64,000 nt of DNA from Escherichia coli. Lineage in GTDB: Bacteria > Pseudomonadota > Gammaproteobacteria > Enterobacterales > Enterobacteriaceae. A model generated the notes under the pieces. The model was not told where the DNA came from and searched no databases. It was given only the letters and a program-made list of their open reading frames with translations. The stretch lies in assembly GCF_046105845.1 (NCBI RefSeq), contig NZ_CP151004.1, one strand, 5' to 3'. Made by a program: the position numbers and the translations under genes. Positions 12,043 to 58,973 of the stretch are shown here, one piece after another (the stretch's first letter is position 1; each line of letters starts with the position of its first letter).

Positions 12043-12662
12043 TGACCACATTTACCAATAAAGAACTGATTAAAGAAATCAAAGAACGAATCAGCAGCCT
12101 AGAGGTTCGAGACGATATTGAGCGCCGTGCTTATGAAATTGCTCTGGCATCGCTAGAAGAGGAGCCGGTGGCATGGCTGCATTCAGAAAATGGCTTAGGT
12201 ATTCCGGCAATAACGAGGAGTAAAAACATTGCTGACAGTTGGTTATCAAAGGGCTGGTATGTTCAGCCGCTATATATAGCCAAGCCAGTGCCGGTGGTGC
12301 CAGATGCTCGTCCGTCTTTAAATAATGGCATAGTCGGCTTTGATGAAGGCTGGAACGCCTGCCGCGCCGCCATGCTTAATGGTGCCGAACCTGTAAGCCA
12401 GACTTACAAGTTGAACGAGCTGTCGGGCAACTCTCCGGTAACTCCGGATGGTTGGATAAGCTGTAGTGAGCGAATGCCGAACGATAAACAGTATGTTTGG
12501 TGTTGGGGTAAGTCTTACGGCTGGACTGAGTACGATACCTTCGAAGGGTATTACGATTGTTCGAGAAACAAATGGTGGGCAGTTACTGACAATGGGGAAG
12601 AACCGGCATCGAAAGTAACCCACTGGATGCCGCTACCGGAGCCGCCGCAGGAGGTGAAGTAA
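12042..12662 (+). CDS. DUF551 domain phage protein (206 aa)
   Basis: The C-terminus ...DGWISCSERMPNDKQYVWCWGKS...VTHWMPLPEPP is the DUF551 pattern. ATGA-type coupling to both neighbours. Confidence 0.6.
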   Translation: MTTFTNKELIKEIKERISSLEVRDDIERRAYEIALASLEEEPVAWLHSENGLGIPAITRSKNIADSWLSKGWYVQPLYIAKPVPVVPDARPSLNNGIVGFDEGWNACRAAMLNGAEPVSQTYKLNELSGNSPVTPDGWISCSERMPNDKQYVWCWGKSYGWTEYDTFEGYYDCSRNKWWAVTDNGEEPASKVTHWMPLPEPPQEVK

Positions 12663-12856
12663 TGAACAACTTAATGACAACTAAACAAGTCGCCGATTTC
12701 TGTGGTGTTTCAGTATCGACAGTTCTTCGCTGGAACAGCGTAAACAGGAGAACTGGCCAGAAATACAGGCCTGACTTTCCAGATCCTGATATTAAATCCT
12801 GCCCAAATAAATGGGCATCACACAAGATTTACAGATTTGCGGGAGTGATTGATTAA
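12662..12856 (+). CDS. Excisionase-type small HTH protein
   Basis: 64 aa. MTTKQVADFCGVSVSTVLRWNS is an HTH_17/excisionase-like helix-turn-helix. It is the last gene of the early-left operon, near int. Confidence 0.55.
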   Translation: MNNLMTTKQVADFCGVSVSTVLRWNSVNRRTGQKYRPDFPDPDIKSCPNKWASHKIYRFAGVID

Positions 12857-13138
12857 TATGTATTAGCTTAGATGTGAGCTGACACATCTATGATTAGATG
12901 CCAAACCAAATCTGAGCGTCCACTCTTTAACAAGAGCGGACGTTACCAATGACCATATGACATGAATCGATAAGATCAAAACATTATCGCCAAGAAATGT
13001 CATACCATTGATACAAATAAAATTGATTACCCCCTTACTCTTGTTGAAAAGTTAGTCGTAGAGTACCTATCGCAATGTAATCAGCTTTAATCATCTGAAA
13101 ATTACTCCTTAAAAATTAGCTTTTATATACTGAACAAA

Positions 13139-13858
13139 TTAAATCTCTGTTTCTTTTCCTGTTCGGCTCAACCAATACTCCATTGTTTGAGTATGAATCT
13201 TTTCAGCGTATATTTTATCAATTAATTTATCTCGTTTTTCTTTAATGACTTTACGCAGTGAATCATATAACATAAAAAAACGTTCATCATCTTCCTCATT
13301 ATTACCATAATTTATTTGATTGAGTTCTGAAAAAATATGATAGCACCTTTTTTTCTTGGTCCCCGGCAATATTAAAACCAAGCCACATTGATCATATTCA
13401 AATTCACCTTTATGGGCAGCAAAGTTATGTCTAACATTCATAATAGAATCATGTAAATCTCTGTATTTTTCTGGCACATGCTTTCTCTGCAATGTGAATC
13501 GACGCCCTTTCGCCTCTGTAAAACACTTACCGTAAGTAACAACTTTTGATATAAATAAAGACTTTAATATTAGATTCTTTTCTAAATCAGGATAAATAAA
13601 GTGTTGTTCTCTATTAATGTTATTACAAATGTTTTTTATTATATTCTCCCAACCAATAACATTCCGAAGATCTTTATCCAGCAACTGTAAGGCCACATAT
13701 TGTTCTACAAAGCGGCCTTTTAAAGGTATTCGTGGTAATATTACACCTTTCTGCTTATAAACTCTTTCTATCGTATTATCTGGATATTGGATCTTCCTTA
13801 TTTCTATTCCGTCTTCTTCTGATACCCTTACTAATGGTTCATTTTTTAACTTTGACAT
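13139..13858 (-). CDS. AT-rich accessory gene (239 aa) with HEPN-like R-x4-A-H motif
   Basis: AAGAGGG SD. It is visibly more AT-rich than the rest of the prophage. The NVRHNFAAHKG motif is at aa 141-151 (core R143-H149, nt 13412-13432). It sits between xis and int. Confidence 0.75.
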   Translation of the reverse strand: MSKLKNEPLVRVSEEDGIEIRKIQYPDNTIERVYKQKGVILPRIPLKGRFVEQYVALQLLDKDLRNVIGWENIIKNICNNINREQHFIYPDLEKNLILKSLFISKVVTYGKCFTEAKGRRFTLQRKHVPEKYRDLHDSIMNVRHNFAAHKGEFEYDQCGLVLILPGTKKKRCYHIFSELNQINYGNNEEDDERFFMLYDSLRKVIKEKRDKLIDKIYAEKIHTQTMEYWLSRTGKETEI

Positions 13859-14143
13859 GTTAACCCTCTTAAATAAAAAACTAACTTTATCCAGATAGTG
13901 TCCGTTAAGAAGTTTTCGTTACAACTAAGTTTCTAGGTAAATCATGAATCAACCTATAGTATCAAAAACATTTGGTGGTAAACATCTGCATTTATCAAAT
14001 AGCAGGAGCGATTTAGGGGCATAGGGATAGTGATGATATCTATACCCGTGCCCTCTTATGTCAACACAATGGCGTAAACTTAACGCTCACATCTCGCTCA
14101 AAGTGTGCTAGGAGATTTGGTTATGTTCAGGTGATACAAACCG

Positions 14144-22150: not shown

Positions 22151-22921
22151 ATGCAAACTGAGCAACAGCGAGCCGTAACACGGCTTTGTATCCAGTGTGG
22201 ATTATTTCTTTTGCAACATGGTGCGGAAAGCGCGTTGGTTGATGAGCTTTCCTCACGACTGGGTCGGGCGCTGGGAATGGACAGCGTCGAAAGTTCTATC
22301 TCTTCGAACGCCATAGTGCTGACAACTATTAAAGATGGGCAATGCCTGACATCGACACGAAAAAATCAAGATCGCGGCATTAATATGCATGTGGTGACTG
22401 AAGTCCAGCACATTGTGATTCTGGCGGAGCATCATCTGCTGGATTACAAAGGTGTAGAGAAACGATTTAGCCAAATTCAGCCATTACGTTACCCGAGATG
22501 GCTGGTAGCCTTAATGGTCGGCCTTTCTTGCGCCTGTTTCTGTAAACTCAATAAAGGTGGCTGGGATGGTGCCGTCATCACCTTCTTTGCCAGTACGGTC
22601 GCGATGTATATCCGCCAGCTACTGGCACAGCGTCATCTTCATCCACAGATCAACTTTTGCCTCACCGCTTTCGCCGCCACCACCATTTCCGGATTGCTTT
22701 TGCAACTTCCCACTTTCAGCAATACCCCCACCATCGCGATGGCCGCCAGCGTTCTGCTGCTGGTGCCGGGCTTTCCGTTGATTAATGCCGTCGCCGATAT
22801 GTTTAAAGGCCACATCAATACCGGACTGGCACGCTGGGCGATCGCCAGTCTGCTGACACTGGCTACCTGCGTCGGCGTAGTGATGGCACTGACGATTTGG
22901 GGGCTACGCGGATGGGTGTGA
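22151..22921 (+). CDS. yjjP: Inner membrane protein YjjP (ThrE family; 256 aa)
   Basis: ATG 22151, [27 protein letters not shown]... The ORF-track start is 21 codons upstream. Confidence 0.8.
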
Positions 22922-23385
22922 TCGAATTTCTGTTAGCGTTGGCGCAGGATATTATCCTCGCCGCCATTCCTGCGGTCGGCTTTGCGATGGTGTTCAACGT
23001 TCCCGTGCGGGCGTTACGCTGGTGTGCGCTGCTTGGCGCGATTGGTCATGGTTCACGAATGATCTTAATGACCAGCGGGCTGAATATTGAGTGGTCAACC
23101 TTTATGGCCTCCATGCTGGTCGGCACCATTGGTATTCAATGGTCGCGCTGGTATCTGGCGCATCCGAAAGTGTTTACCGTGGCGGCTGTTATCCCCATGT
23201 TTCCGGGCATATCGGCTTATACCGCAATGATTTCGGCGGTAAAAATCAGCCAGCTAGGTTACAGCGAACCGTTGATGATTACCCTGTTAACCAACTTTCT
23301 TACAGCTTCATCGATTGTTGGTGCGTTATCTATCGGTCTTTCCATTCCTGGATTATGGTTGTACCGCAAGCGCCCTCGCGTATAA
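22912..23385 (+). CDS. yjjB: Inner membrane protein YjjB (157 aa)
   Basis: ATG 22912, [13 protein letters not shown]... It overlaps the end of yjjP. Confidence 0.8.
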
Positions 23386-23491
23386 AATTGCCTCGCTTAA
23401 GCACACGGATGAGAGACAGCCTCCTCTCCTCCGTGTGTTACTATAAAAGTTATCTCCCTTCTCGTTCATCGTTCCATATTTGAGAAACAGT

Positions 23492-24031
23492 ATGTCTTCC
23501 AGAGTTTTAACCCCGGACGTCGTTGGTATTGACGCCCTGGTACACGATCACCAAACCGTTCTGGCAAAAGCTGAAGGCGGTGTGGTTGCCGTATTTGCTA
23601 ACAATGCCCCGGCGTTTTATGCCGTCACGCCTGCACGCCTGGCTGAACTGCTAGCGCTGGAAGAAAAGCTGGCGCGTCCGGGAAGCGATGTCGCTCTGGA
23701 CGATCAACTCTATCAGGAACCGCAAGCTGCTCCCGTTGCTGTACCCATGGGGAAATTCGTCATGTATCCGGACTGGCAACCCGATGCCGACTTTATCCGC
23801 CTGGCGGCGCTATGGGGCGTGGCACTAAGAGAGCCGGTGACCACCGAAGAACTGGCCTCATTCATTGCCTACTGGCAGGCGGAAGGTAAAGTCTTTCACC
23901 ATGTGCAGTGGCAACAAAAACTGGCGCGCAGCCTGCAAATCGGTCGTGCCAGCAACGGCGGACTGCCGAAACGAGATGTGAATACGGTCAGTGAACCTGA
24001 CAGCCAAATTCCACCAGGATTCAGAGGGTAA
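23492..24031 (+). CDS. dnaT: Primosomal protein DnaT (179 aa)
   Basis: [21 protein letters not shown]...[13 protein letters not shown]. It is followed 2 nt later by dnaC. Confidence 0.9.
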
Positions 24032-24033
24032 CG

Positions 24034-24771
24034 ATGAAAAACGTTGGCGACCTGATGCAACGCCTGCAAAAAATGATGCCTGCCCATATCAAACCTGCTT
24101 TCAAAACGGGTGAAGAACTACTGGCCTGGCAGAAAGAACAAGGGGCGATCCGCTCCGCCGCTCTCGAACGTGAAAATCGGGCGATGAAAATGCAGCGCAC
24201 CTTTAACCGCTCCGGTATTCGTCCACTGCATCAGAACTGCTCCTTTGAGAACTATCGCGTTGAGTGTGAAGGGCAAATGAATGCGTTAAGCAAAGCGCGC
24301 CAGTATGTCGAAGAGTTTGACGGCAACATCGCCAGCTTCATCTTTTCTGGTAAGCCAGGAACCGGCAAAAACCATCTGGCGGCGGCAATCTGCAACGAGC
24401 TGCTGCTACGCGGTAAATCCGTATTGATCATCACCGTGGCCGATATTATGTCGGCGATGAAAGATACCTTCAGGAATAGCGGTACCAGCGAAGAACAACT
24501 GCTTAACGATCTGAGCAACGTTGATCTGCTGGTGATCGATGAGATCGGCGTGCAGACCGAATCGAAATACGAAAAAGTGATCATCAACCAGATCGTCGAT
24601 CGCCGCTCTTCTTCCAAACGCCCAACCGGGATGCTGACCAACAGTAATATGGAAGAGATGACCAAGTTGCTGGGCGAACGCGTGATGGACCGTATGCGCC
24701 TGGGTAATAGTTTGTGGGTGATCTTCAACTGGGATAGCTACCGTAGTCGGGTAACGGGTAAAGAGTATTAA
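24034..24771 (+). CDS. dnaC: Helicase loader DnaC
   Basis: 245 aa with Walker A GKPGTGKNHL and Walker B LLVIDEIG. Confidence 0.95.
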   Translation: MKNVGDLMQRLQKMMPAHIKPAFKTGEELLAWQKEQGAIRSAALERENRAMKMQRTFNRSGIRPLHQNCSFENYRVECEGQMNALSKARQYVEEFDGNIASFIFSGKPGTGKNHLAAAICNELLLRGKSVLIITVADIMSAMKDTFRNSGTSEEQLLNDLSNVDLLVIDEIGVQTESKYEKVIINQIVDRRSSSKRPTGMLTNSNMEEMTKLLGERVMDRMRLGNSLWVIFNWDSYRSRVTGKEY

Positions 24772-24816
24772 TCTCCGTTTCTGGCGGTATACTGCGACAC
24801 AATTCCACCTTGAGTA

Positions 24817-25314
24817 ATGATGATGAAAACTGTTAAACACCTTCTGTGCTGTGCCATTGCCGCCAGCGCATTAATTTCCACCGGGGTGCATGCTGCGTCC
24901 TGGAAAGATGCGCTCTCCAGCGCCGCCAGCGAACTTGGCAACCAAAACAGCACGACACAAGAAGGCGGTTGGTCGCTCGCGTCATTAACTAACTTGCTTA
25001 GCAGCGGGAATCAGGCCTTAAGCGCAGATAACATGAACAACGCCGCAGGCATTCTGCAATACTGCGCGAAGCAAAAGCTGGCTTCGGTAACCGATGCCGA
25101 AAACATCAAGAATCAGGTACTGGAAAAACTGGGCCTGAACAGTGAAGAGCAAAAAGAAGACACCAACTATCTGGATGGCATTCAGGGTTTGCTGAAAACT
25201 AAAGATGGTCAGCAACTCAATCTGGATAATATCGGAACGACTCCGCTGGCAGAAAAGGTGAAAACCAAAGCCTGCGATCTGGTGTTAAAGCAGGGGCTGA
25301 ACTTCATTTCCTGA
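24817..25314 (+). CDS. yjjA: Secreted/periplasmic protein YjjA (DUF2501)
   Basis: A signal-peptide-like N-terminus MMMKTVKHLLCCAIAASALISTGVHA. The start is ambiguous among three consecutive ATG codons. Confidence 0.75.
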   Translation: MMMKTVKHLLCCAIAASALISTGVHAASWKDALSSAASELGNQNSTTQEGGWSLASLTNLLSSGNQALSADNMNNAAGILQYCAKQKLASVTDAENIKNQVLEKLGLNSEEQKEDTNYLDGIQGLLKTKDGQQLNLDNIGTTPLAEKVKTKACDLVLKQGLNFIS

Positions 25315-25567
25315 ACCGCGAAACGCCGCGTTTTAGCTGTTACCCGGCTGACGCGGCTCTCTCCTGCCCTTTTCCCTGCTCCTGGACGGTTTTCCCCCTG
25401 TTACACGGGAAGCGACCGTAATCAAAAAAGTCTGTTTATAAACTAATTCCTAACAACATCGCATTTTTTTGACACTAGAATTGCAGCAATATGGCGACGC
25501 CATTACATTGTGCTTCTCAAAAAGCTTAAACGTTGGCTAAACGGCCCGGTTTAGTGAGGATCGCCCG

Positions 25568-27859
25568 TTGTCAGAACTACTCTCTTTCGCCCTTTTTCTC
25601 GCCTCTGTGCTGATTTACGCATGGAAAGCGGGACGTAACACCTGGTGGTTTGCAGCCACATTAACGGTACTGGGGCTATTTGTCGTTTTAAATATCACCC
25701 TGTTTGCCAGCGACTATTTTACTGGCGATGGTATTAACGACGCGGTTCTCTATACCTTAACCAACAGCCTGACCGGTGCTGGTGTCAGCAAATACATTCT
25801 TCCGGGTATCGGCATTGTGCTGGGGCTGACGGCGGTGTTCGGTGCGCTGGGCTGGATCCTGCGCCGTCGTCGCCATCATCCGCACCATTTTGGTTACAGC
25901 CTGCTGGCACTATTACTGGCGCTGGGTTCAGTGGATGCCAGCCCGGCATTTCGTCAGATAACGGAACTGGTGAAATCCCAGTCACGCGACGGCGACCCGG
26001 ACTTTGCGGCTTATTATAAAGAGCCGTCGAAAACTATCCCTGACCCGAAACTCAACCTGGTTTATATCTACGGCGAAAGTCTCGAGCGAACCTATTTTGA
26101 TAACGAGGCTTTCCCGGATCTCACGCCTGAACTGGGCGCGTTGAAAAATGAAGGCCTGGATTTCAGCCACACGCAGCAGCTGCCAGGAACGGATTACACG
26201 ATTGCGGGCATGGTGGCTTCTCAGTGCGGAATACCGCTGTTTGCCCCATTTGAAGGCAACGCCTCCGCTTCTGTTTCCAGCTTCTTCCCGCAGAACATCT
26301 GTCTGGGCGATATCCTGAAAAACTCGGGTTATCAGAACTATTTCGTGCAGGGCGCGAATCTGCGTTTTGCCGGTAAAGATGTGTTCCTGAAGTCGCATGG
26401 CTTCGACCACTTATATGGCTCAGAAGAGCTGAAAAGCGTGGTGGCCGACCCGCACTATCGCAACGACTGGGGATTCTACGACGATACCGTTCTCGACGAA
26501 GCGTGGAAAAAGTTTGAAGAGCTTTCCCGCTCAGGTCAGCGATTCTCACTGTTTACCCTGACAGTCGATACCCATCACCCGGATGGTTTTATCTCGCGCA
26601 CCTGTAACCGCAAAAAATATGATTTTGACGGTAAGCCTAATCAGTCATTCAGCGCGGTAAGTTGCAGCCAGGAGAACATCGCGACGTTTATCAACAAAAT
26701 CAAAGCGTCACCGTGGTTTAAAGATACCGTCATCGTCGTCTCTTCTGACCATTTAGCGATGAACAACACGGCGTGGAAATACCTCAATAAGCAGGATCGC
26801 AATAACCTGTTTTTTGTCATCCGTGGCGACAAGCCGCAGCAAGAGACGCTGGCAGTGAAGCGTAATACGATGGATAACGGCGCGACGGTGCTGGACATTC
26901 TCGGTGGCGATAACTATCTCGGACTTGGTCGTAGCAGTTTATCCGGGCAGTCAATGTCGGAAATCTTCCTCAATATCAAAGAGAAAACATTGGCGTGGAA
27001 GCCGGATATCATCCGCCTGTGGAAATTCCCTAAAGAGATGAAAGAGTTCACCATCGACCAGCAGAAAAACATGATTGCCTTCTCGGGTAGCCATTTCCGT
27101 TTGCCGCTGCTGTTGCGGGTTTCAGACAAGCGCGTAGAACCGCTGCCGGAAAGCGAATACTCAGCACCGCTGCGTTTCCAGCTGGCCGATTTCGCTCCAC
27201 GCGACAATTTCGTCTGGGTTGACCGTTGCTACAAGATGGCACAACTTTGGGCTCCGGAACTGGCACTCTCCACCGACTGGTGTGTCTCGCAAGGGCAGCT
27301 TGGCGGTCAGCAAATTGTCCAGCATGTTGATAAAACAATGTGGAAGGGCAAAACGGCATTTAAAGATACGGTCATCGACATGGCGCGTTACAAAGGCAAT
27401 GTCGATACGCTGAAGATTGTTGATAACGATATTCGCTACAAAGCCGACAGTTTCATCTTTAACGTCGCCGGTGCGCCAGAAGAGGTGAAACAGTTTAGCG
27501 GAATTTCCCGTCCGGAGTCGTGGGGCCGCTGGTCCAACGCTCAGCTGGGCGATGAAGTAAAAATCGAGTACAAGCATCCGCTGCCGAAGAAATTTGACCT
27601 GGTGATTACCGCCAAAGCATACGGCAATAACGCCAGCCGTCCTATTCCGGTACGCGTAGGCAATGAAGAACAAACCCTTGTGCTGGGCAATGAAGTGACC
27701 ACCACCACACTGCATTTCGATAACCCAACCGATGCAGGCACACTGGTAATTGTGCCGCCGGAACCTGTCTCAACCAACGAAGGGAATATCCTCGGACACT
27801 CGCCGCGTAAGCTCGGGATCGGCATGGTGGAAATTAAAGTGGTAGAACGTGAAGGGTAA
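25568..27859 (+). CDS. opgB: Phosphoglycerol transferase I OpgB (MdoB)
   Basis: 763 aa with a TTG start. It has N-terminal transmembrane segments and a sulfatase-type domain (...[10 protein letters not shown]...SSDHLAMNN). Confidence 0.9.
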
Positions 27860-44248: not shown

Positions 44249-45615
44249 GTGCGGAGAAATTGCCGGAGGGGTGGGTTGAGTGTGAATTATCCGAACTCGG
44301 TAACATTGTTACAGGGAAAACTCCCAGTACCAAGGAGCCTTCCAATTTTGGAGGCAGCATTCCTTTCATTAAACCAGGCGATCTTGATCTCGGTGGCTAT
44401 ATCATGAATACCGCCGATACTCTGACGGAGAAAGGGTTATCTCTTGTCCCCACTCTTCCTGCCAATTCAGTCGTTGTGACGTGTATTGGAAATTTAGGAA
44501 AAGTTGGAATTACCGCTAAAAAATCAGCATCTAATCAACAAATAAATGCATTGATCCCGTCAGAAAAGCTAAATGTAAAATTTGTTTATTACCAAATTTT
44601 AACATTAAAACCATGGTTAGAGTCTCAATCAGCAGCTACTACAATTGCGATTGTGAACAAGAGCAAATTTTCTCAGGCACCATTTAAATTCCCGTCGCTT
44701 GCCGAACAAAAAATCATCACTGAAAAACTCGATACGCTGCTGGCGCAGGTAGACAGCACCAAAGCACGTCTTGAGCAAATCCCACAAATCCTGAATCGTT
44801 TTCGTCAGGCTATTCTAGCTAATGCTGTGGAAGGAAAATTGACCGACGAATGGCGAGCCGGAAAATGTTATATTACAGAAATCAAAAAAATATCTGATAT
44901 TATTCAGAATGCTCAAGTCGGATTAGTTCGTTCAGCTTCAGATCAAAGCGAAATATGCACTCAAAAAATGAGAACGCCTTATATAAAAATGAATAACATT
45001 CACAATGTTCTCGGAACAAATTTAGAAAAACTCGCTTATGTCAACTGTGATAGCTATGAACTGGAAAAATATAGATTAAAAAATGGAGATTGGCTCTTTA
45101 ATACACGAAATAGTTATGAGTTAGTTGGTAAATCCTGTGTCTGGAATGGATGTAGCAATGCTGTATATAATAATAATATATTAAGAGTTAGACTAAAAGA
45201 AAACTACAATTCTGTTTTTTTAGATTATTGGTTTCACTCGTTCTATGGAGTGAGCATGCTTAATAGTATTAAATCCGCAACAACAAATGTTGCTGCGATA
45301 TATCAGAAAGAACTCTTAAGTAAAAGTGTTCCATTCCCCCCCCTTCCCGAACAAGCCGAGATTGTTCGCCGCGTCGAACAACTCTTCGCCTACGCCGACA
45401 CCATAGAAAAACAGGTCAACAACGCCTTAGCCCGCGTTAACAACCTGACGCAATCCATCCTGGCAAAAGCGTTCCGTGGTGAACTCACCGCCCAGTGGCG
45501 GGCCGAAAACCCGGATTTAATCAGCGGAGAAAACAGCGCCGCCGCGTTGCTGGAAAAAATCAAAGCTGAACGCGCAGCCAGCGGGGGTAAAAAAGCCTCG
45601 CGTAAAAAATCCTGA
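44245..45615 (+). CDS. hsdS: Type I R-M specificity subunit with non-EcoKI target recognition domains
   Basis: 456 aa. The conserved central region (LAEQKIITEKLDTLLAQVDSTKARLEQIPQIL) and C-terminal region (LPEQAEIVRRVEQLFAYADTIEKQVNN...) are as in EcoKI HsdS. The two intervening AT-rich TRDs differ from EcoKI as I remember it. Confidence 0.9.
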   Translation: MSAEKLPEGWVECELSELGNIVTGKTPSTKEPSNFGGSIPFIKPGDLDLGGYIMNTADTLTEKGLSLVPTLPANSVVVTCIGNLGKVGITAKKSASNQQINALIPSEKLNVKFVYYQILTLKPWLESQSAATTIAIVNKSKFSQAPFKFPSLAEQKIITEKLDTLLAQVDSTKARLEQIPQILNRFRQAILANAVEGKLTDEWRAGKCYITEIKKISDIIQNAQVGLVRSASDQSEICTQKMRTPYIKMNNIHNVLGTNLEKLAYVNCDSYELEKYRLKNGDWLFNTRNSYELVGKSCVWNGCSNAVYNNNILRVRLKENYNSVFLDYWFHSFYGVSMLNSIKSATTNVAAIYQKELLSKSVPFPPLPEQAEIVRRVEQLFAYADTIEKQVNNALARVNNLTQSILAKAFRGELTAQWRAENPDLISGENSAAALLEKIKAERAASGGKKASRKKS

Positions 45616-48771: not shown

Positions 48772-48793
48772 GCGGTAAGTTTTATAGAAAATA

Positions 48794-48820
48794 CCGCTCC
48801 CGACACCACATCGGGAGCGG
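48794..48820. terminator. Perfect 10-bp hairpin between convergent mcrC and the giant helicase gene
   Basis: CCGCTCCCGA-caccaca-TCGGGAGCGG, with a T-rich tail on the minus strand (tattttct). Confidence 0.6.
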
Positions 48821-48827
48821 CTCATCA

Positions 48828-51800
48828 TCAGGAGGCGATCACCTCCACCAGCACATCCGTTGCCCAACTCTCTTCGCTGTTGGCGACATTCCCTTCCTTG
48901 CAGGCCTGAGCCATTTTGACTAACTGGAAAGAAACGTCATCGCGGAAATCAAAGTAATGCCATTGCGATGCAAAGTTGATGCGCCAGTAGCCCATCCCCT
49001 GATCGAAGCGGATCTTCAATACCTGACCATCATCAAAAGTCACCGTCAGTTTACGATGGTGAGGGATATCGCGCGGCGAGTCGAACACCGTCAGTTCTAC
49101 CGGCCTGCCCAGCGCAGCAGCAAACCACTGATCAGCGAAATCCTGAAAATCCGCTATGCTCATCCAGTCATGGAAAGGCCGGTTACCGGGGCGATCTTTA
49201 TCTTTAAATAGCGTATCCAGCGTCACTTCAGCGCCATCGGTCAGCTTTGTTTTTAGCGGTCTCAAAATTGATCCCAACAACGCCAGCGCAACCGGGTTTT
49301 GCAGATAGCGATCGGTATAGTGAACGCCGGTAATTCGCGTGTTATTCATCAGTGACTGCGCTTCTTCATGGTCGTTAAACAGCACGTCCCAGAAGCGTTG
49401 CCCAAACTGCGACAGTGGTCCATTCAACTGTTTGTGGATCTGAATGTCTTTGACCCGCTCGACAGCGTTGGCGGCTTTAGCCGGCAGAATAAATTCGTTC
49501 AGCTCTACCGTTTTATAGCCGAGACTACGTACCACCAGTTCGTCATTCAGGTGCCACTCCGGCCCCGGAATCGTTGCCTGCTGGCTACGAGAGGCCAGCG
49601 TCATCACGCGATCGGCAAAGGTGACCTGAGCAACGATCGGTAATTTCAAATCCTGTTCAACATGGCATAGCCGCACACCCAGCGCAGTAAATTGCGATAG
49701 TTCGTGCAACAGGTCCGGGTCATCCACTCCCGCAGGAATAACAAGATCGACCTCGACGTTGTCTTTTAGCCGATAGTTCTGAACCGCCGCGCGGAACTGA
49801 CGTGCGTATAAATCCCACTCATTGGGCGCGCCGGTCATCCACAGGGTGAGCTTTTCAGCGCCTTCGTTAATCGCCCGGCGAATCGTATCGCCAATGGCGC
49901 CAGGGCAGTAGCGGGCATCCGGCAGCGAGAATGTCTCTTCATCCGGTAAACCGATGTAATACGTGAAGTCATCGCCAAGCCAGGCCAGCGCCGCTTTGCG
50001 ATCCAGCAAATCGTGATCGTGGCGAGTCTGGGAATCAAGCAGGCATTCACTACATGCAGTCTCACAATGGCGGCAGCCTAACTGTTTCACCATTCCCTGC
50101 AATATAGCTTCAATGTGTACCGGTGCGCTGGAGGCAAAACCTGCACCACCGCTGATCACATCATAAAGCTGTACGGCTAATACCGATTGCCCATCCTCCA
50201 GTCTGACCGGACGTACAGAATAGCCGAGTTCTGCGGCGGAGATACCCAGAACGCCCGCCAGCGCCTGACGCAGAGCAACCGCCAGAGTCATGGCAACAAT
50301 CCGCCCCTCCTCTGTGTTATCTGGCAGATACTCGCCGTTTTGCGGTTTGCGCAGAACCATTTCAAAGACATCGGTGCGCGCCAGTGCGCCCAGGGTGACG
50401 TTCTTCATGAGTGCCGTCGAACCGGGGCAAATCAGACGATGATTCTGGCTATCGCGGTCCGCTTTACCCGGACGCGGTGGATAGTGAGCTTCCATGCTTT
50501 TCGGCGCATCATTTTCATTCAGCATCGACTCAGCACGGCCACAGCTCAGACACAATGCATAACCGTGTCCACCTTCCCCCAAACTTTGCTGGAAAACATG
50601 CCCATCAGCCCCAGAAGCCATATAACCCATTAGCGGGTTAGGCAACGGTACGGGCTCTGCTTTAACAAAGACCCACGCGGGGACAACCGGGACGAATTTC
50701 ATGGTTTCAATATTGTTCGTTACCGGAGCGTGTGCATCGGTGACAAACCCGGCAGGCTGCAGCACCTGACGGCGATTATCCATGATTATTTTTTCGCCGC
50801 AGGCGCTATTGGAGCAAAAGAGCATCCCGGAACTGCTCATCCCCTCTTCATAGCCAATGGTCCCGCATTTGTGACAGCGCCAGGCGCAATCCAGACGCTG
50901 GGCTTCATTGGTATCAGCATTAATGTTGTGCCAGTGCAGTGAGACACCGGCAGAGCGGAAGACACGGCCATCAAGAATGATCTCTGCTCCCGGTGCATAT
51001 TCACGAATGGCAACACCGAGGTTACGGGAAGGTAATCCTTTATAACGGGAGACGTTATCTTCACGGTCCTTTTTATCACGACTTTTTTGCGATTTTTCGC
51101 GGATATAATCTTCCATTGTGAAGTTATCAAACGTCACTACATCTGTCGGGAAACCGTATCCCGGCAAGAAGGTTCTGGCAGCTAGATCGCGCAGCAGATA
51201 CTCGCCACAGTGCCGTTTCTTCTCCAGCTCTATGCGCTTACGATAAGGCGTTTGCGGCTGCGACTCACGCTCCTGTGTCACGAGATCGCGATAAACGGAG
51301 AGCCACCGCTGCTGCAGGAAGGTGATCGCGTTGATTGTTTTATCCCGCAGATATTCGGCTCTTGCACCATGCAACGCCGTACCTTTCACCAGCCGTTCCA
51401 GCGCCGTGTCGATATCAAGAACAGGGCGTTCCAGCCAGACTTTGAAGCGTTCGCATTTTGACTGCCCGTCATCTTCACCGAAAAACCAGAGGCTATCGAG
51501 GCTGGTTTTCTCTTTATCGGTTTCGCCAATAACGTTACATAAAAAGTCGGACAGTAATAATGCATTGACGTGACGTTGCACCAGTCGGGCGGAGTTCATC
51601 GCGACCATGGGTGCCGGGATCATGGTTTCAAATGGCCAGAGCGGGTTGGCAAAAACCTGCTGGTCGTGTGGGTTACCTTTACATAGGGTGTAAGAGATCG
51701 CACGTGATTCTTTACTACGCCCGGCTCGCCCGGCGCGCTGTAAATAGTTGGCCGGATGTGGCGGTACGTTGTTCATTACCACCGCAGTAATGCCCCCGAT

Positions 51801-54800
51801 ATCAACCCCCATTTCCATGGTGGTGGAACAGTTGAGAACATTTAGTTGCCCATTCTTGAACATCTTTTCATAGCTTTGCAGACGTTCTGACGACTGCTGG
51901 GCAGAGTGCTCGGCAGTGCGATAGTAGAAACCGCCTTCCACGACACGATCGTTGATGTCTGTCCAGACGTTTTCCGACCGCAATTGTGCGATCAGCGGAT
52001 CATTGCTGACCCAGTCGCGTGCTTTTGCCAGACCCTCTGCGTAGTCTTCCTGTGAACGATCCAGCTTCCAGATTTCCGGCATGGTGACTTTCTGCGCGAC
52101 AAAAGTGTCATATTGCGCCTGGGTAAGATGCTCGAACGAAATATGGGTAGGCAGATAAGGGGTTAAGCCTTTAAAAGCCGTATCCAGGATTTTATTGGTT
52201 ACCGGGCAAATCCAGGCATCCGTGATTAATGAAAAAGTCATATGCTCTTTCGGTAAATAAAAACGGTTGCCATCGGGTTTCAGTACTGCAAGCGGTCCGG
52301 TAAGTTGGGCCCATGCTTCTTTCAGCCATGTATTGATAATATCAATAGTCGCCGTATTGACGGTTTTGAATCCAGCCCCCAGCATCAGTAACTTCGCTAA
52401 ACGATGGGATACGTTGCCATTACGAATTTGAGGCCAGCGTCTGTTCTGATTATCTTCAGGATCTTTTGATTCCGGGTTACGGACGAATTTTGATGAAAAA
52501 CGGCTACCGATCCAGTTTTTCAGCTCATCATCCAGCTGTGTGAAGTTGCTCTCACGAACGTAATGATCCAGCGTAACTTTGAGAAAATCGCGCCAGTCAT
52601 CCAGCGTTAATCCTTTTTCCTGCCAGTGCAGAGGGATCTTATGTATTTTCTCCAGCCCCAGGTAACCAACCTGAACCAGCCCTTGTGTTTCCAGGCTGTT
52701 AGTCCGTTTAGGGCGACGCATGAATTCCCGGAATAACAACATTTCCGAAAGCTTTAGAGGCCCGCCGTTTTCATTAAACACTTCAGGCTTAAGATAATGG
52801 TTATATTGCAGAACCGGGCCACGGATATCGGCTCTCTCTTTAAGCTCGTTAACCATTTCTGTCCAGGTTCGGGATACCAGAGTAATTGCAGCTTTTCCAC
52901 CGATTGCAGACTGGTAAGCCTGTTCAAGCTGCTCGGCCTGCGCTTCTGATAATTTCGCTTGATCCGGCAATCCCCAGCTTCGATATTCTTCTGCCTGCTC
53001 ACGGGCTTGCTTTACCCTGGTCGCTAATTTTTCCAGATCGGCATTAGCGTTCGGCGCCGTGGGCGTTTGCGTTCGTTGATGCCAGCTCAGAATTTCGACT
53101 ACGCTTCCGCGTAAGCGACTACGTTCTGCTTCTTGCTGCATACGCACCGCCATCCGGGCTGTCCCTTGTCGACTATCCGTAAAGGTAATGAGTCGACGTC
53201 CTCGCCCTGGCAACGAATCTGGTCCGACGCCCTCTTTGCCTTCATCACTGGCAAAGTCCTGACAATACTCAAGAACGGTAGGCACGATGTTAGTAACGTA
53301 AAATGGCCCACCTAATAATGCACGCCGAAAGGGTTGTTTTCCGCTCATGCCTCGGTAGCCACAGCCGCTGGCGCTACAAACCTGTTCAATATCATTAATA
53401 ATCAGCGGAATGCTGTCATTATTAATAACGCCAATACGGCGCGTCTGACGGTCGAGGCGTTGTAGGGTATAGCCTGTCTCGCTGGTCTCTCCTGCGGCAA
53501 TAATCAACGGAGGCTGGAAACTGTTCTCTTTTTCGACTTTTTCCTCTGTAGTGTCATGTTCAACAGGTACTTCATCCTGCAAGGAGAACTCATCGCCACC
53601 TTTATTTTCCCATTGGACAAGTTTGCCCTTTTTGTCCTGCGCCAGAAGATGAGGCTCATTACAATCATTACAGAACGCCACTTCGTATACAGGGCTTCCA
53701 CAGTCACAATTTTGTCGCTGGTTCACATACACATAGCCAAAGGGCCAGCCTTTTTCGAGCGGTGTACCGTGCTTTAATCTGCAATCTTTATCAACACAAG
53801 CCCATATTCCCTGGGTATTACGCTGGAAGATATGCGCCCTGACTTTAAGAAATGCGGGATCCTTTGCATTAGGTTGAGTCCCTGAACAGACATCGATCCA
53901 ACGCAGTACTTCCTGCTGGCTGTAATGCTGTTTTGTCAGCACGTTTAACCGCTCTGTTATCTCATCCAGCTTCATCGGATTGGGCTGTTTGACCAACATC
54001 TCACGTATGTAACGCGCTTCGGGGGAATGCGTAAGCGCATAAAAGCGATCAGGACTTATACCTTTAATTTTATTATCATTTTTATCTCTTAGATCCAGAT
54101 CGGGTATTTGCTCTATTTCGTCTAACGGAAGAGAAACGTTTTTGGATGGTTCCAGTTCAGGAATCACCCGACTTCCGTCCAGAACATCGATGCGCTCCTT
54201 CGGGATACCGGATAATTCAGAGAGAAATTTTTTCAGCTGCTTTTCGACGTCGCTGCCGGCAATGGTCGCAGAGGTCGCTACAAAGCGCACATCATCTGGC
54301 GTCACGCCAAACGCTGTCATCACACGACGCAGCTGGAGCGCCAGTTCAGCGGCCTGCGACCCGACATAGGTATGCGCTTCATCCAGTACAATCCAGCGTA
54401 GTGATTTTTGTGCTTTGGATTGCTGGATAATCGGGGCGTCGACCTGGCGAACCATCATATATTCCAGCATCGTGCCGTTGGTCACCAGAATCGGGGCAGG
54501 TTCTTCACGCATTTTTTCGCGCGAGAGCACCTCATTCGGCCTTTTTGCCTGTTCGCTTTTTACCGAAGCGTGTAGGTTTTCGGTGTTACCGTTGTAAAGG
54601 CAGTAGCGGATCCCGGTACCAAAACCACGCGTCCAGGCATCCAGACGCTCGCGCTGTGAATTAATCAGGGCGTTCAATGGATAGAGAAAAAGGGCTCGGA
54701 CACCGACCAACGGATTGTTGCCATTTTCATGCAGTTCCCGGTAAAGATCTTCCAGCACCGGTACCATAAAACATTCCGTTTTACCTGAACCCGTACCACT

Positions 54801-55172
54801 GGTTACCACCACTGAATGTTTCTTTTCCAGCAAAGCTTTCCAACTGGCTAACTGGTGTGTAAAAGGCTTCCAGTCAGCACCAAATCGGTACCGGCCATTA
54901 CTCTGATCATCCAGTGAATCAACCACTGCTTTGCTCAACAATGCGTTGCCTTCCGTCAGACTGCGCATCGTGTGGTTTGACTCCTTCCAGCCAAACATTT
55001 GCTGGAATACCGGAGAAGCAAGGAATGAGCCCGGTTTCCCACAATCAGCCCCCATTTGTTGCGCGAGATGTTCACGCAGCTGCGGGTTGGTTACGCCCAT
55101 GATACTGAGCGTTGCTTCAGTTGAACGAGACAACGATTGTTCAATAAGTGACGAAAAATAGCGTGTAGTCAT
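48828..55172 (-). CDS. druE: 2114-aa DExH-box helicase with DUF1998/MrfA-type zinc module and ~400-aa C-terminal extension (DruE-like)
   Basis: It has GTGSGKT (aa 126-132), DEAH (263-266), SAT (301-303), [12 protein letters not shown] (661-672), [11 protein letters not shown] (1117-1127), QRAGRAGR (1145-1152) and the cysteine cluster [11 protein letters not shown] (1700-1710). AGGA-type SD, 12 nt after the upstream stop. The symbol is assigned from architecture and memory only. Confidence 0.8.
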
Positions 55173-55184
55173 CCTTATTCCTTT

Positions 55185-58100
55185 TTATTTTTTAGCAACA
55201 TAACGCAACAGGCTGCACTGAAAGATGGTCTTAAACCAGCGGGAATCGAAGTCCCTGACTTGCCTCAGGAAAAATACGGCACCGGGTTTACGGTCAAATA
55301 CAGCTTCAAAAGAAGTATTTCCGCTTGCCACAGCTGCAGCGAAGACGGGTAACCAGGCCACGGAATAGCGGTGATTTGCGTCAGGATTAATACCAATCAC
55401 TGGCTTTTTTTGTGACATCATCCATTTATACAGACGCTTGCAGCCATATTCAGGCCAGCGAGCTTCACTGTGCTCACGTAAAAGCTCCTGATACCACCCG
55501 TGGACACAAGATTCAGGAATAGACGGAGGGAGATATCCGTTACTTAACCATTTCTCAATTTCATCGGCATATGTCGGGAACACGAGCCCCAGCCGTTGAA
55601 ACATATTAGTAACCAGTAATTTCTGGGTTTCCTCCGGTGCACCTTTTTGGCTCAGGAACAATTTGAAACGCTCAGATGCAGCTTTGATCTCAAAGATGGG
55701 GAAAAACTCCCATAGAATAGGGAACTCATTCTCAATACGACTCAGGTACTCTGCTGACATTTCAAATTTGAAGAGCGACATTGCCAATGCCTGCGGATGC
55801 TGCACCAGTGCACGCCATACTTCAAAGGTTGCCAGTGGTAAATACCCGAATTGATCGTACAGGCTACGCATAAATTGCCAGCCGGAATGGGCAGGATCGT
55901 TAGCCATCTGTCCGAGAACCAGTGTGATGGTATTAACTTCTGCCTGTGGATTAAAAAGCTGGGTCGCTTTCTGCAATGAGCGGATGTTGCTTTCTTCTAC
56001 CGGTAACGAAGATTCGCCACGAATGAAGCAGGGACGAAAAGCCATCTCTTCACCCGGTTTAGGGACAACCAACCACGGTCCATTTTTGTTAACGATTGAG
56101 CTCAACTCATATTCACCGACAGGCACTCCCTCGCTCATTCTAGATGCTAAGGGAATGGATTTCCTCTCGGGTTCACTTAACAGCATGATAACGGGGGAAG
56201 GAATCTGCCCAGCACGATGGTTCACTGACTGGCTGAGTAATAGTTCTTTTTCATAATCATAGCGCAGGCTGTATTTATAGCGACGAATTTGCCAGGCCAT
56301 GACCACACCTGCCCCCGTAATACGCATCTCAACAACCTGATCAATACCTGCCTCAAGTGAAATCAGGTTCTCAATATGTTCGCGAAGACTATAGAGATTC
56401 AATTCAACAGGACGATCGCTCAACGCCGTATAACACCATTCATGCCATGCCTGTAATCCACTAACGGAGCGCAAATACAACTGCAATGTATATTTTGTCG
56501 GCTCACCATTTCTGGAGAACAGAAACGCTCTGGAACCCAGCAGATCATGCAGCGTAATGTTTTTATCCAGAGGACGTCCGTTTACATCAAGAGCGAGACA
56601 GCCTTTAGCGGGAAAAGGTAACTCAATGTCGATGGGGTCAGCCGCCAAATTAGGCAGAACTTGTAATGTAATAAATGCCGGAGGTACCCCTTCCGCTTTA
56701 AGTTGTATCTCTGTTCGCCCCTCAGTACGCTTACGTGTAGCCTCCAATGTTTTATCTTTAAGTTTTGCTACACAAGGATGCTGTGTGGTGATTAAGATAG
56801 TGCCTTCATTTGCGTGCATTCCACCTTTTATCTCAATACTGAAATCAGCAGGCAAGATACCGATTTTGCGACGCAAGAGCGTTTCATTGTTACTATTACG
56901 GATAGAAAGATATTGAGCCCCCAGCATCTCTTGTATATGACATTGCTCAATTGAAATTCCGCTCAGGTAACGCGTTACATCAATGCTTTGAATATCCGGT
57001 AGTGTAGAAATGACTTTTGGTACACCAATAAATGTTTCATCTGGATGACAAACCCAGCTTGCACGCTTTCCATTTAGAGCAAACCTTCCGATGCTGATTT
57101 GTTCTCTTCCGGTGCGAATCCGATAAGTTTCATTTGCTGTAACTGTAACGTCCTGACATCCCTTCACAGGTAGTGCTTTTAGTCCTAATACGTTTACTGC
57201 GCTCGATTGGCCATCAAAACCAGCAACATTGCTATTATCCCGAGGGAGTACAATCAGAACATCGCTGCTTCGCACACTGCAAGAAGCCTGTCCCTGTAAC
57301 AGCCATTGATCTGCATCAACGATGAAGGTTAACGGCACCTCACCAATGGCAATTTCACTGTCATCAAGTTTAATGCTCCCAACAATCATCCCTCCAGCAC
57401 GAGCCACTAATGACAAACCTGCCGATGGATTTTGCCTGACAAATCTCACTTCGCTTTTACGTAATCGAACTGTTGCCTGTCTGTTTTCCAGGGAAGCATA
57501 GGCTGGCCCAAGGCCAGAGACTTCCTCACCATCTTCACAAATGGCAAGTTCAAAGCGCGTAGTTGACGGCTCGCTTGTTACAGGAAAGGAAACTTCGTCC
57601 GGAAGAGATACTATCACCCTAAGCTCATCTGGATGCTTTTCTGACCAATAGAATTGGCAACGCGTACTCTTATTTTTTTGTAGTCGAGGCTTAGCCTCTA
57701 CAGAGGCTGCGCATAGCAGTCCATTCAAAAAATGCGTTCCTGTTTCATCATCTAACGGTATTGGAAACTCGCTTCGCCAGGTAGGGTGAACCTTCTCAAG
57801 CTGTTGTACTGGTTCTTTGTGATTTATTAGGTTGTGAGTAAGTACTAAGGAATTGAGGTTATCAGCCATATGACTGATAAGTTCTACAGAGGTATCTTCG
57901 CTAAAAACAGTTGGCAGCGCTGATTTTTCTATGACAGCTCTTGCCAGCGAAAGGGCAGAAAAACCTGACTGCTTTGCTTGCTCATATTGTCCAAGGATCC
58001 TGGAGAAAACAGCCAGAAAGCGACTGTCTGATTCTTTGAGTAGCCGGAAAGGTAAACCACCTTCACTGAATAATGTTCCGAGAAAATTGCGTCGTTCAGA

Positions 58101-58475
58101 TTCATAAAATCGAATTGGGCGCAGCCAGTAATCTTCCATCCCTTTCGGTACGATAGTACCAAGCTCTGTGGCGGTGAATGAAATCCCTATTTTTTTATAT
58201 ATAGGGTCCCACGTCCATCCGCATTGCCGTTCATAATCCCTGCGGTACCACTCAGAGCAAAAAAGAACAAAACAGGCAGCAAAGTCCCTATTACATATAT
58301 TAGATTGTGATTGATCGACCGCACGGAGTAGCTGCGTTAATTGGGTATATTCATCATTGGTTGCATGATATTCATAAAGAGGACGGCCATCCGGTTGTCT
58401 CAACCCTCTAAGATTCACAAAGTTACTTAGCCAGGAAGTACATTTTACCCATGAAATGTATTCTGATTGACCCAA
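55185..58475 (-). CDS. druH: ~1100-aa protein of unknown function, operon partner of the helicase (DruH-like; STY4851/ECs_5259-type from memory)
   Basis: The long ORF has no recognisable catalytic motif. The preferred start is TTG 58475, 6 nt after AAGGAG (58482-58487). The ORF-track start GTG 58523 has no SD. There is no in-frame ATG near the 5-prime end. Confidence 0.75.
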   Translation of the reverse strand: MGQSEYISWVKCTSWLSNFVNLRGLRQPDGRPLYEYHATNDEYTQLTQLLRAVDQSQSNICNRDFAACFVLFCSEWYRRDYERQCGWTWDPIYKKIGISFTATELGTIVPKGMEDYWLRPIRFYESERRNFLGTLFSEGGLPFRLLKESDSRFLAVFSRILGQYEQAKQSGFSALSLARAVIEKSALPTVFSEDTSVELISHMADNLNSLVLTHNLINHKEPVQQLEKVHPTWRSEFPIPLDDETGTHFLNGLLCAASVEAKPRLQKNKSTRCQFYWSEKHPDELRVIVSLPDEVSFPVTSEPSTTRFELAICEDGEEVSGLGPAYASLENRQATVRLRKSEVRFVRQNPSAGLSLVARAGGMIVGSIKLDDSEIAIGEVPLTFIVDADQWLLQGQASCSVRSSDVLIVLPRDNSNVAGFDGQSSAVNVLGLKALPVKGCQDVTVTANETYRIRTGREQISIGRFALNGKRASWVCHPDETFIGVPKVISTLPDIQSIDVTRYLSGISIEQCHIQEMLGAQYLSIRNSNNETLLRRKIGILPADFSIEIKGGMHANEGTILITTQHPCVAKLKDKTLEATRKRTEGRTEIQLKAEGVPPAFITLQVLPNLAADPIDIELPFPAKGCLALDVNGRPLDKNITLHDLLGSRAFLFSRNGEPTKYTLQLYLRSVSGLQAWHEWCYTALSDRPVELNLYSLREHIENLISLEAGIDQVVEMRITGAGVVMAWQIRRYKYSLRYDYEKELLLSQSVNHRAGQIPSPVIMLLSEPERKSIPLASRMSEGVPVGEYELSSIVNKNGPWLVVPKPGEEMAFRPCFIRGESSLPVEESNIRSLQKATQLFNPQAEVNTITLVLGQMANDPAHSGWQFMRSLYDQFGYLPLATFEVWRALVQHPQALAMSLFKFEMSAEYLSRIENEFPILWEFFPIFEIKAASERFKLFLSQKGAPEETQKLLVTNMFQRLGLVFPTYADEIEKWLSNGYLPPSIPESCVHGWYQELLREHSEARWPEYGCKRLYKWMMSQKKPVIGINPDANHRYSVAWLPVFAAAVASGNTSFEAVFDRKPGAVFFLRQVRDFDSRWFKTIFQCSLLRYVAKK

Positions 58476-58973
58476 AGCAAGCTCCTTAGAGATAAAAGAT
58501 ACAAAAACAAAACCCCACAACACTTCTAATTTGAAAGAAAACTTTTCAAAATATCGTATAATTAATCAGGCGGCAACAACTAATTTTTCAGGTCGGTACT
58601 ATAAATTAATTTTAGATAAAAATGATATCAACCATCTATTAATCACAACTCATTTATCACCTGGTTTTATAATTTCAAATGAAAATAAATCTCAAACAAT
58701 CAAAAAGTATGCAGTAGCTAACATTTAACTTTCCAGGATATAAAACAATTAGAGAAACTGCACAATAGCGAATAATGAAAGTTGTAAAGTCAGTCAAAAA
58801 ACACAAGCAATCAGTGTGCGTTTTTTGACCGTTATCGACATGAGTTTAAAGAGTTTAGTGAAGAAGATATTCCTGTACACTCCATACCTATTGATGAATT
58901 GTCTCGGGAAAATTTTTATAACTTAATTTAAAAACATAAAAACGTTTTATTATATATAAATCTATACCCCCCC

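Follow-up and report, generated by a model that had tools for sequence, protein, structure and literature searches.

A tandem phospholipase D-like tail with an invariant H-x-R pair in the type III Druantia helicase DruE of the Escherichia coli immigration control region

The 64,000-nucleotide stretch of Escherichia coli contig NZ_CP151004.1 (assembly GCF_046105845.1) analysed in this study, hereafter the window, encodes at positions 48828..55172 (-) the 2114-amino acid (aa) protein DruE, a type III Druantia helicase. Employing a combined approach of profile searches, structure prediction, conservation analysis and codon comparison, it was possible to assign the C-terminal tail of this protein, with near certainty, to a tandem phospholipase D (PLD)-fold module of the type III-A DruE kind, consisting of a degenerate domain (PLD1) followed by a well-folded domain (PLD2) in which an H-x-R variant, H2038 and R2040, takes the HKD position. 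The existence of a tandem PLD-like tail in type III-A DruE is already known, having been predicted in 2025 and seen by cryo-electron microscopy (cryo-EM) in 2026, and four groups disagree as to whether it acts as an effector nuclease. The analysis presented here establishes the identity of the protein, the fold of its tail, the residues that are truly conserved and the purifying selection to which the tail is subject.

The identification of druE is based on the list of open reading frames (ORFs) and its translations, on PADLOC and Pfam profiles and on a solved structure. The PADLOC DruE3 profile PDLC00037 matched residues 1-2110 of the product across profile positions 1-2053 of 2055 with a score of 2696.7 bits, while residues 5-2089 were matched to the DruE protein of PDB entry 9TU7 with an E-value of 0. 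Pfam recognised a DEAD domain at residues 106-310 (8.5e-23), Helicase_C at 1085-1153 (8.6e-12) and MZB at 1631-1711 (1.7e-9) and, with a DEAH box at residue 264, both the superfamily 2 (SF2) DEAH core and the MZB (DUF1998) zinc module are therefore present. This end-to-end profile match, the adjacent druH gene, the DEAH and MZB modules and the two PLD-like domains place druE and druH in type III Druantia and, through the PLD-like domains, which set it apart from type III-B, specifically in type III-A. All druE segments given below lie on the minus strand (-).

The tail follows the MrfA-type zinc-binding MZB/DUF1998 domain (PF09369; aa 1631-1711, positions 50040..50282), the last Cys cluster of which consists of C1700, C1703, C1707 and C1710. 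A first-pass annotation, made by eye from this DNA, had remarked on an extension of approximately 400 residues beyond the zinc cluster that lacked helicase motifs. This extension is real, comprising the 404 residues 1711-2114 (window 48831-50042), over which Pfam was blank. To assess conservation within the tail, 1.84 billion representative proteins were searched with a profile, and 997 relatives of the tail were returned (182 at E<=1e-30); the 128 relatives covering nearly the whole tail were aligned, and scoring was performed on 117 sequences, consisting of this tail together with homologues below 60% identity to it, the majority of which share 20-35% identity with it (range 20-55%). Counts out of 117 refer to this set. 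Not all of the extension belongs to the PLD tail: its first ~45 residues represent a conserved helix and linker of the zinc module (aa 1712-1755, 49908..50039), delineated by conservation and by an AlphaFold2 (AF2) model. Three conserved positions, L1723, R1725 and A1728, mark this helix, with R1725 retained in 115 and L1723 in 109 of the 117 sequences; in the model the helix spans residues 1720-1732, with a low predicted local distance difference test (pLDDT) score when modelled out of context. Residues 1712-1755 thus belong with the zinc module rather than with the PLD tail.

The AF2 model, which covers residues 1711-2114 only (mean pLDDT 79, the first ~36 residues being poorly modelled), shows two alpha/beta domains in succession. 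The first, PLD1 (aa ~1756-1900, 49473..49907), was delimited using AF2 secondary structure (beta-alpha-beta-alpha-beta-beta-beta), conservation, Foldseek and the PLD1/PLDi domain of the literature. The second, PLD2 (aa ~1905-2114, 48831..49460), is well folded and harbours pocket residues that are invariant across the family. A Foldseek comparison of the two-domain model with the PDB placed the C-terminal domain of MITD1 first (E=4e-6), followed by PssA, the E. coli phosphatidylserine synthase (2e-5), a Streptomyces PLD (4e-4), yeast Tdp1 (1e-3) and SauUSI; the vaccinia F13 protein was also among the fold matches. PssA, PLD and Tdp1 are two-lobed PLD enzymes, and it was the two-domain model that matched them. 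The first-pass annotation had ventured a PLD-type fold, called for a check by HHpred and Foldseek and named an unknown domain as the alternative: the guess at the fold was correct, as judged by Foldseek on the AF2 model, and the alternative finds no support, the tail being the PLD1/PLD2 module already described.

The composition of these matches raises the question of whether the tail might be a lipid- or membrane-binding module akin to MITD1, phospholipases or cardiolipin synthases, anchoring DruE where phage DNA enters. MITD1 is a eukaryotic ESCRT-III-associated protein whose PLD-like domain binds membranes; it is the top structural match, and PssA, PLD and F13 are also on the list. We nevertheless regard a membrane role as very improbable, given that the remainder of DruE is a DNA helicase, that the pocket residues map to a site which the authors of a study on Pseudomonas aeruginosa DruE (PaDruE) tie to DNA degradation, and that DruE-mNeonGreen of the EDL933 type, a fusion that is functional, was found to be cytosolic both with and without infection (10.64898/2026.05.13.724758).

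Membership of the PLD superfamily rests on fold, because sequence profiles do not connect PLD2 either to Pfam PLDc or to non-DruE proteins in the PDB. Pfam returned no match to the DruE tail at E<=0.1, PLDc and PLDc_2 included, and a single marginal PLDc_2 match (E=0.011) among 29 diverse PLD2 domains. A PLD2 profile searched against all PDB sequences retrieved DruE 9TU7 only (E=4e-40), and hhalign of this profile with E. coli ClsA gave a probability of 0.4%, i.e. no link. The proposed equivalence of H2038 with the HKD histidine accordingly takes its support from fold, secondary-structure position and published structures. An internal duplication giving rise to PLD1 and PLD2 was also looked for: hhalign of the two sub-alignments gave no significant similarity, the local alignment (E=0.086) corresponding to a shifted alpha/beta unit and the global one being meaningless. 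As profile comparison detects no homology between the two domains, PLD1 is recognisable solely by its fold.

Five positions of PLD2, namely Y1952, D1954, P1960, H2038 and R2040, are invariant in 117 of 117 sequences. G2059 (116), D2057 (115), W2003 (113), W1873 of PLD1 (112), Y1956 (109) and R1955 (102) are nearly so, while G2061 (99) and Q2058 (91) are retained to a lesser degree. The putative PLD2 pocket is distributed over three elements. The Y1952-T-D1954-R1955-Y1956 motif (49305..49319), identified from the 117-sequence conservation, lies at the end of the first PLD2 strand and is followed by P1960; H2038-H2039-R2040 (49053..49061), located by conservation and by alignment to 9TU7, stands at the start of the beta-strand 2040-2046, with H2038 and R2040 as the conserved pair; and D2057-Q2058-G2059 (48996..49004) forms the loop that follows the beta-hairpin, where the canonical motif has its GSxN loop. 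The actual family motif is thus HxR(x)16DQG in place of the canonical HxK(x)4D(x)6GSxN, and H2038-x-R2040 is an H-x-R variant of the HKD position.

These data do not agree with the motif that had been noticed by eye. The first-pass annotation had singled out a 20-residue segment (aa 2037-2056, 49005..49064), now seen to be the loop and beta-hairpin (strands 2040-2046 and 2051-2056) of PLD2, and had likened H2039-x-K2041 and D2047 within it to the HKD signature, which would make the tail a classical HKD-type PLD nuclease with its site at these three residues. The residues are present where they were placed, in a segment beginning at P2037, and among the seven listed representatives that are 40-100% identical to this tail (this one included) H2039 is found in six, K2041 in all seven and D/E2047 in six. 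The register, however, is off by one. Across the 117 sequences position 2039 is mostly A, G or S, position 2041 mostly E, V or K and position 2047 variable, in contrast to the invariant neighbours H2038 and R2040, and 9TU7 has G and E at the positions of 2039 and 2041. Furthermore, as judged from secondary structure, residues i+1 and i+3 of the beta-strand would face away from the pocket lined by i and i+2. The annotation had itself observed that the K-to-D spacing was one residue too long, and indeed HxK(x)4D is absent from the whole DruE protein; the relaxed pattern HxK(x)4-5D arises in 26% of whole-protein shuffles and in 8% of tail shuffles and is not above chance. We therefore attach hardly any credence to a catalytic site at H2039, K2041 and D2047. 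H2039 and K2041 are retained only in the nearest clade, with at least 40% identity to this tail, where a clade-specific role is possible. As the invariant pair is H2038/R2040, H2039A and K2041A mutants would probe these clade-specific residues and not the conserved pocket; the residues worth mutating are those conserved family-wide, H2038, R2040, Y1952, D1954 and D2057, rather than the by-eye choice of H2039, K2041 and D2047.

PLD1 presents a different picture. It lacks an H-x-K/R motif, and its only well-conserved positions are W1786, D1787 (65% D), L1825, A1860 and W1873. The strand corresponding, by secondary-structure register, to that of H2038 reads L1844, P1845, I1846 and has no conserved polar residue. 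In a two-histidine comparison based on the same register, PLD2 thus carries the invariant H2038, the corresponding positions of PLD1 being occupied by L1844 and I1846. It had been stated earlier that no second HKD copy could be seen; while there is indeed no second copy of the motif, a second, degenerate PLD-like domain does lie upstream. The published labels agree with this finding for PLD1, owing to the lack of a conserved polar residue on the HKD-equivalent strand: type III Druantia helicases were credited with a pair of PLD-like nuclease domains, activity being predicted, on the basis of HHpred, for the C-terminal member only (Bell et al., September 2025, PMC12458937), and the two domains of ECOR19 DruE were named PLDi and PLDa (PMC13192584).

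Phage defence has been shown for the DruE homologues of E. coli ATCC 8739, EDL933 and ECOR19 and of P. aeruginosa, and cryo-EM structures of DruE appeared in May 2026 in four preprints, whose functional conclusions conflict. PaDruE (GenBank ERY33374.1) was termed a 'helicase-coupled nuclease', with a pocket lined by D1740, H1830, D1917, R1918, Y1919, R1951, H1999, R2001 and S2022; D1740A, D1917A and R1918A abolished defence, R1951A, R2001A and S2022A had intermediate effects, and D1740A also eliminated ATP- and Mg-dependent degradation of single-stranded DNA (ssDNA) (10.64898/2026.05.13.724313). The ECOR19 protein was reported to cleave long ssDNA and double-stranded DNA with ATP and Mg2+, and its PLD-pocket mutation R1258A to abolish defence (PMC13192584). 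The ATCC 8739 protein was found to possess two PLD-like domains without a canonical motif (10.64898/2026.05.12.722862), and the EDL933 structures were deposited as PDB 9TU7-9TUC (10.64898/2026.05.13.724758).

In order to place the PaDruE pocket on the present tail, its residues were mapped via motif spacing through a representative sequence, P0046, whose spacings are identical to those of PaDruE; a search of the retrieved sequences for the PaDruE, ECOR19 and ATCC 8739 proteins by published residue numbers had yielded no exact match. The distance from D1917-R-Y to H1999-x-R2001 is 82 residues in PaDruE, while that from D1954-R-Y to H2038-x-R2040 is 84 here, and PaDruE-like representatives are ~34% identical to this tail. 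The mapping suggests that D1740 corresponds to D1787 (W-D), H1830 to H1874 (W-H), D1917, R1918 and Y1919 to D1954, R1955 and Y1956, H1999 to H2038, R2001 to R2040 and S2022 to G2061. The putative active-site list of PaDruE would consequently match this tail by motif and spacing, with a difference at S2022, which becomes G2061; no counterpart of R1951 was identifiable in this tail by motif spacing.

The W1873-H1874 pair of PLD1 (49551..49556), matched by spacing to the PaDruE pocket residue H1830, merits particular attention. Only 8 of the 117 sequences have H1874, every one of them belonging to the branch nearest this protein, and 9TU7 has W-G instead. Since H1874 is common to this allele and PaDruE and is a glycine in the EDL933-type protein, the pocket of this allele would appear closer to that of the 'nuclease-positive' PaDruE than to the 'dispensable' E. 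coli island type. One could speculate, though we consider it rather unlikely, that the immigration control region allele and the P. aeruginosa-like branch constitute a minority clade that keeps one histidine per PLD lobe (H1874 and H2038), its closest relatives sharing H-H-R-K, and that this clade, provided both histidines reach one pocket, represents a genuine PLD-type nuclease of the two-histidine kind with an H-x-R motif, the second histidine having been lost in the Zorya-Druantia-ARMADA island type (W-G, EHGRE). Were this so, it could explain part of the conflict among the preprints, between a PLD-dependent nuclease in PaDruE and a dispensable tail in ATCC 8739 and EDL933. The present E. 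coli allele is a good test case because it has a putative second pocket histidine which the dispensable-tail proteins lack.

Selection on the tail was estimated by a codon comparison of the full-length gene among 11 enterobacterial orthologues taken from genome contigs. The ratio of non-synonymous to synonymous substitution rates (dN/dS) was 0.13 for PLD1, 0.115 for PLD2, 0.062 for the whole gene and 0.011 for RecA2, these values being approximate with dS at 0.8-0.95, near saturation. The tail thus evolves approximately twice as fast as the protein average yet is constrained: it is clearly under purifying selection (dN/dS ~0.12), less constrained than the motor and not decaying. Consequently, being dispensable in one assay is not the same as being functionless.

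As to what the tail does, we give even odds to its being a helicase-coupled, conditionally required nuclease with a chemistry other than the classical two-HKD one. DruE would load on exposed 3' ssDNA of phage intermediates and translocate or unwind with ATP; DruH and DNA binding would reposition the mobile PLD module over the helicase; and the PLD2 pocket, formed by Y1952, H2038, R2040, D1954, R1955, Y1956 and D2057-Q-G, would engage a phosphate in the backbone of the strand that the motor feeds to it, and nick or degrade that strand, probably with the help of D1787 of PLD1 and, in this clade, of H1874. In this scheme DNA loading, domain movement and nuclease activity are taken from the preprints on homologues, from which DNA cleavage by this particular allele would be expected.

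A considerable number of observations weigh against such a nuclease. DruE has no canonical HKD motif and is missed by the Pfam PLDc models, and the PLD-like domain of MITD1, its best structural neighbour, is not known to be catalytic. The DruE literature describes MITD1 merely as a PLD-like look-alike, the PaDruE authors naming it as the closest one (10.64898/2026.05.13.724313). Removal of PLD2 or of both PLD domains left defence by ATCC 8739 DruE unchanged, and neither nuclease activity nor a nuclease motif was found, from which the authors concluded that the protein lacks an active nuclease domain (10.64898/2026.05.12.722862); EDL933 DruE 1-1723, cut just past the MZB domain, still protects against phage Bas26, and in vitro the protein displayed no nuclease activity that was reproducible, nor was cleavage seen in the cryo-EM samples (10.64898/2026.05.13.724758). 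Type III-B DruE proteins, such as the 1667-aa protein of M. smegmatis, defend without a PLD tail. For PaDruE, R2001A was only intermediate in effect, and the text consulted mentions no histidine mutants (10.64898/2026.05.13.724313). Finally, all functional data come from homologues that are 25-35% identical in the tail and not from this allele.

Much of this would be accommodated if the tail were a non-catalytic pseudo-enzyme, an MITD1-like scaffold whose PLD2 pocket binds a phosphate-bearing ligand (a DNA end, or a nucleotide such as ATP) and which modulates autoinhibition, the formation of oligomers or cross-talk with adjacent defence systems, while DruH or other nucleases destroy the DNA; we regard this as a serious possibility, if somewhat short of an even chance. 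It would fit the absence of a canonical HKD and of a Pfam PLDc match, the dispensability of the PLD domains and the lack of nuclease activity in two E. coli DruE studies, and the approximately twofold faster, if still constrained, evolution of the tail. It would also fit ECOR19 DruE, whose C-terminal domain mediates trimer formation and in whose trimer ATPgammaS occupies the PLD pocket (PMC13192584), the movement of the PLD module by 13-24 Angstrom upon complex formation or oligomerisation and the description of DruH itself as a nuclease by two groups (both PMC13192584; 10.64898/2026.05.13.724313). A pseudo-enzyme is, however, difficult to reconcile with the loss of in vitro ssDNA degradation in PaDruE D1740A, and absolute invariance of a His/Arg/Asp set is what one would more usually expect of a catalytic site than of a scaffold, though ligand binding fits too. 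Moreover, the two deletion studies report, in the text consulted, one phage each, Bas26 for EDL933 and Bas08, in plaque assays, for ATCC 8739. The earlier suggestion that the tail is the killing or cleaving end of a helicase-driven machine therefore stands neither shown nor refuted, with the PaDruE pocket mutants and ECOR19 cleavage in its favour and the dispensable, nuclease-negative tails of ATCC 8739 and EDL933 against it.

The gene directly upstream of druE and co-directional with it is druH (YjiT family; 1112 aa; 55185..58523 (-)), which matched PADLOC DruH3 over residues 19-1112 with 1829.3 bits and whose counterpart in the syntenic strain FDAARGOS_497 is annotated as 'protein YjiT'. It is the sole partner gene of druE, the pair being bordered by mcrC at one end and by yjiS/yjiR at the other. 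Annotated syntenic regions have the order mrr, hsdR, hsdM, hsdS, symE, mcrB, mcrC, helicase (druE), yjiT (DruH), yjiS and yjiR, and the druE-druH locus thus sits in the classical E. coli immigration control region, beside mcrBC and hsdRMS. Over 38.8-60.0 kb, the window and FDAARGOS_497 align everywhere but in hsdS (44278-45348), of which only a 110-bp internal piece aligns, as expected for the varying specificity subunit of a type I system.

Three in-frame TGA codons stand in tandem at the end of druE, its stop codon being the first of them (48793-48830, (-)), and immediately after the stop comes a terminator-like hairpin (48793..48821 (-)) with a 13-bp stem, eight GC pairs and a T-rich tail. 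Located within the 56 bp that separate druE from the convergent mcrC gene, the hairpin is a plausible terminator, possibly bidirectional; the hairpin scan found two sites compared to 0.4 expected in shuffles. Two short antisense ORFs, 48957-49211 (+) of 84 aa and 49368-49643 (+) of 91 aa, are located inside the PLD-coding part of druE, and nothing suggests that either is a gene. Elsewhere in the window, G+C content is low at 1-2000 (0.37) and 12001-14000 (0.39) compared to ~0.50 in the remainder, and these stretches may be horizontally acquired islets.

A gene on the chromosome of E. coli 2012C-4221 matches the tail with 100% identity; among 5426 complete E. coli genomes, 648 contain a match at 95-100% identity, and in 337 of these 648 the match covers less than 80% of the tail. 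In K-12 MG1655 the pseudogene yjiV (906 codons; NC_000913.3 4572414-4576855 region) is an in-frame deletion remnant of DruE that joins residues 481-1124 to 1854-2114 at 97-99% identity, and yjiT (505 aa) corresponds to DruH residues 17-519. As both are remnants of DruE and DruH, the immigration control region of K-12 holds a dead type III Druantia, and the short matches in the 337 genomes probably stem from the same deletion. Further deletion chimeras were encountered in public assemblies (P0003-P0005 and P0032), one combining DruH 1035-1058 with DruE 350-533 and 1746-2114 and another DruH 533-1010 with DruE 1995-2114. Pfam PF27116, which had come up in hits P0003-P0005 as a potential new partner domain, was dismissed since these proteins are themselves such chimeras, assembled from pieces of DruH and DruE. 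The locus seems to undergo repeated decay by internal deletions that leave the PLD tail in frame. In strain 2012C-4221, despite its identical tail, druH is split by IS100 (IS21 family) and annotated as a pseudogene (22358-27606), unlike the window, where it is an intact 1112-codon ORF.

Compared with known systems, this DruE has the same order of helicase, MZB, PLD1 and PLD2 as the E. coli island-type proteins of EDL933, ATCC 8739 and ECOR19 (Zorya II-Druantia III-ARMADA II). The relation is nonetheless distant, the 9TU7 tail aligning with this one over 375 residues at E=1e-19 and 73 bits. Both proteins have a YSDRY/YTDRY-type motif, H-x-R, a D-x-G loop and a degenerate PLD1, but 9TU7 has W-G where this tail has W1873-H1874, and EHGRE...DMG where this tail has PHHRK...DQG. 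The genomic setting also differs, the present allele residing beside mcrBC and hsdRMS and those of ATCC 8739, ECOR19 and EDL933 in the Zorya-Druantia-ARMADA island, and dispensability of the PLD domains has been shown for the island-type proteins of ATCC 8739 and EDL933. The resemblance to the C-terminal PLD-like domain of MITD1 (PDB 2YMB and 4A5Z) is one of fold only, with 16% identity and no sequence-profile link to the DruE tail. DruE PLD2 has an invariant polar pocket. With the PLD-family nucleases Nuc, BfiI, NgoAVII, SauUSI, Zucchini and PLD3/4, PLD2 shares a histidine at the start of the strand-hairpin and a basic residue at +2, and SauUSI, like DruE, combines a PLD nuclease domain and an SF2 helicase in one polypeptide; DruE differs from these nucleases in its HxR(x)16DQG motif, present in one lobe only, and in lacking a Pfam PLDc match. 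Classical PLD nucleases are not known to require a metal, while both Mg2+ and ATP, needed by the helicase, were present in the reported DruE assays. A comparable association of a PLD-superfamily module with a YprA/MrfA-like MZB defence helicase is provided by DrmC of DISARM and by PLD nucleases from the Dpd and BRIGADE systems, and DrmC, too, can be dispensed with against some phages; it has a gene of its own and is described as a PLD endonuclease with an N-terminal four-helix bundle, whereas in DruE the tail is fused to the helicase itself.

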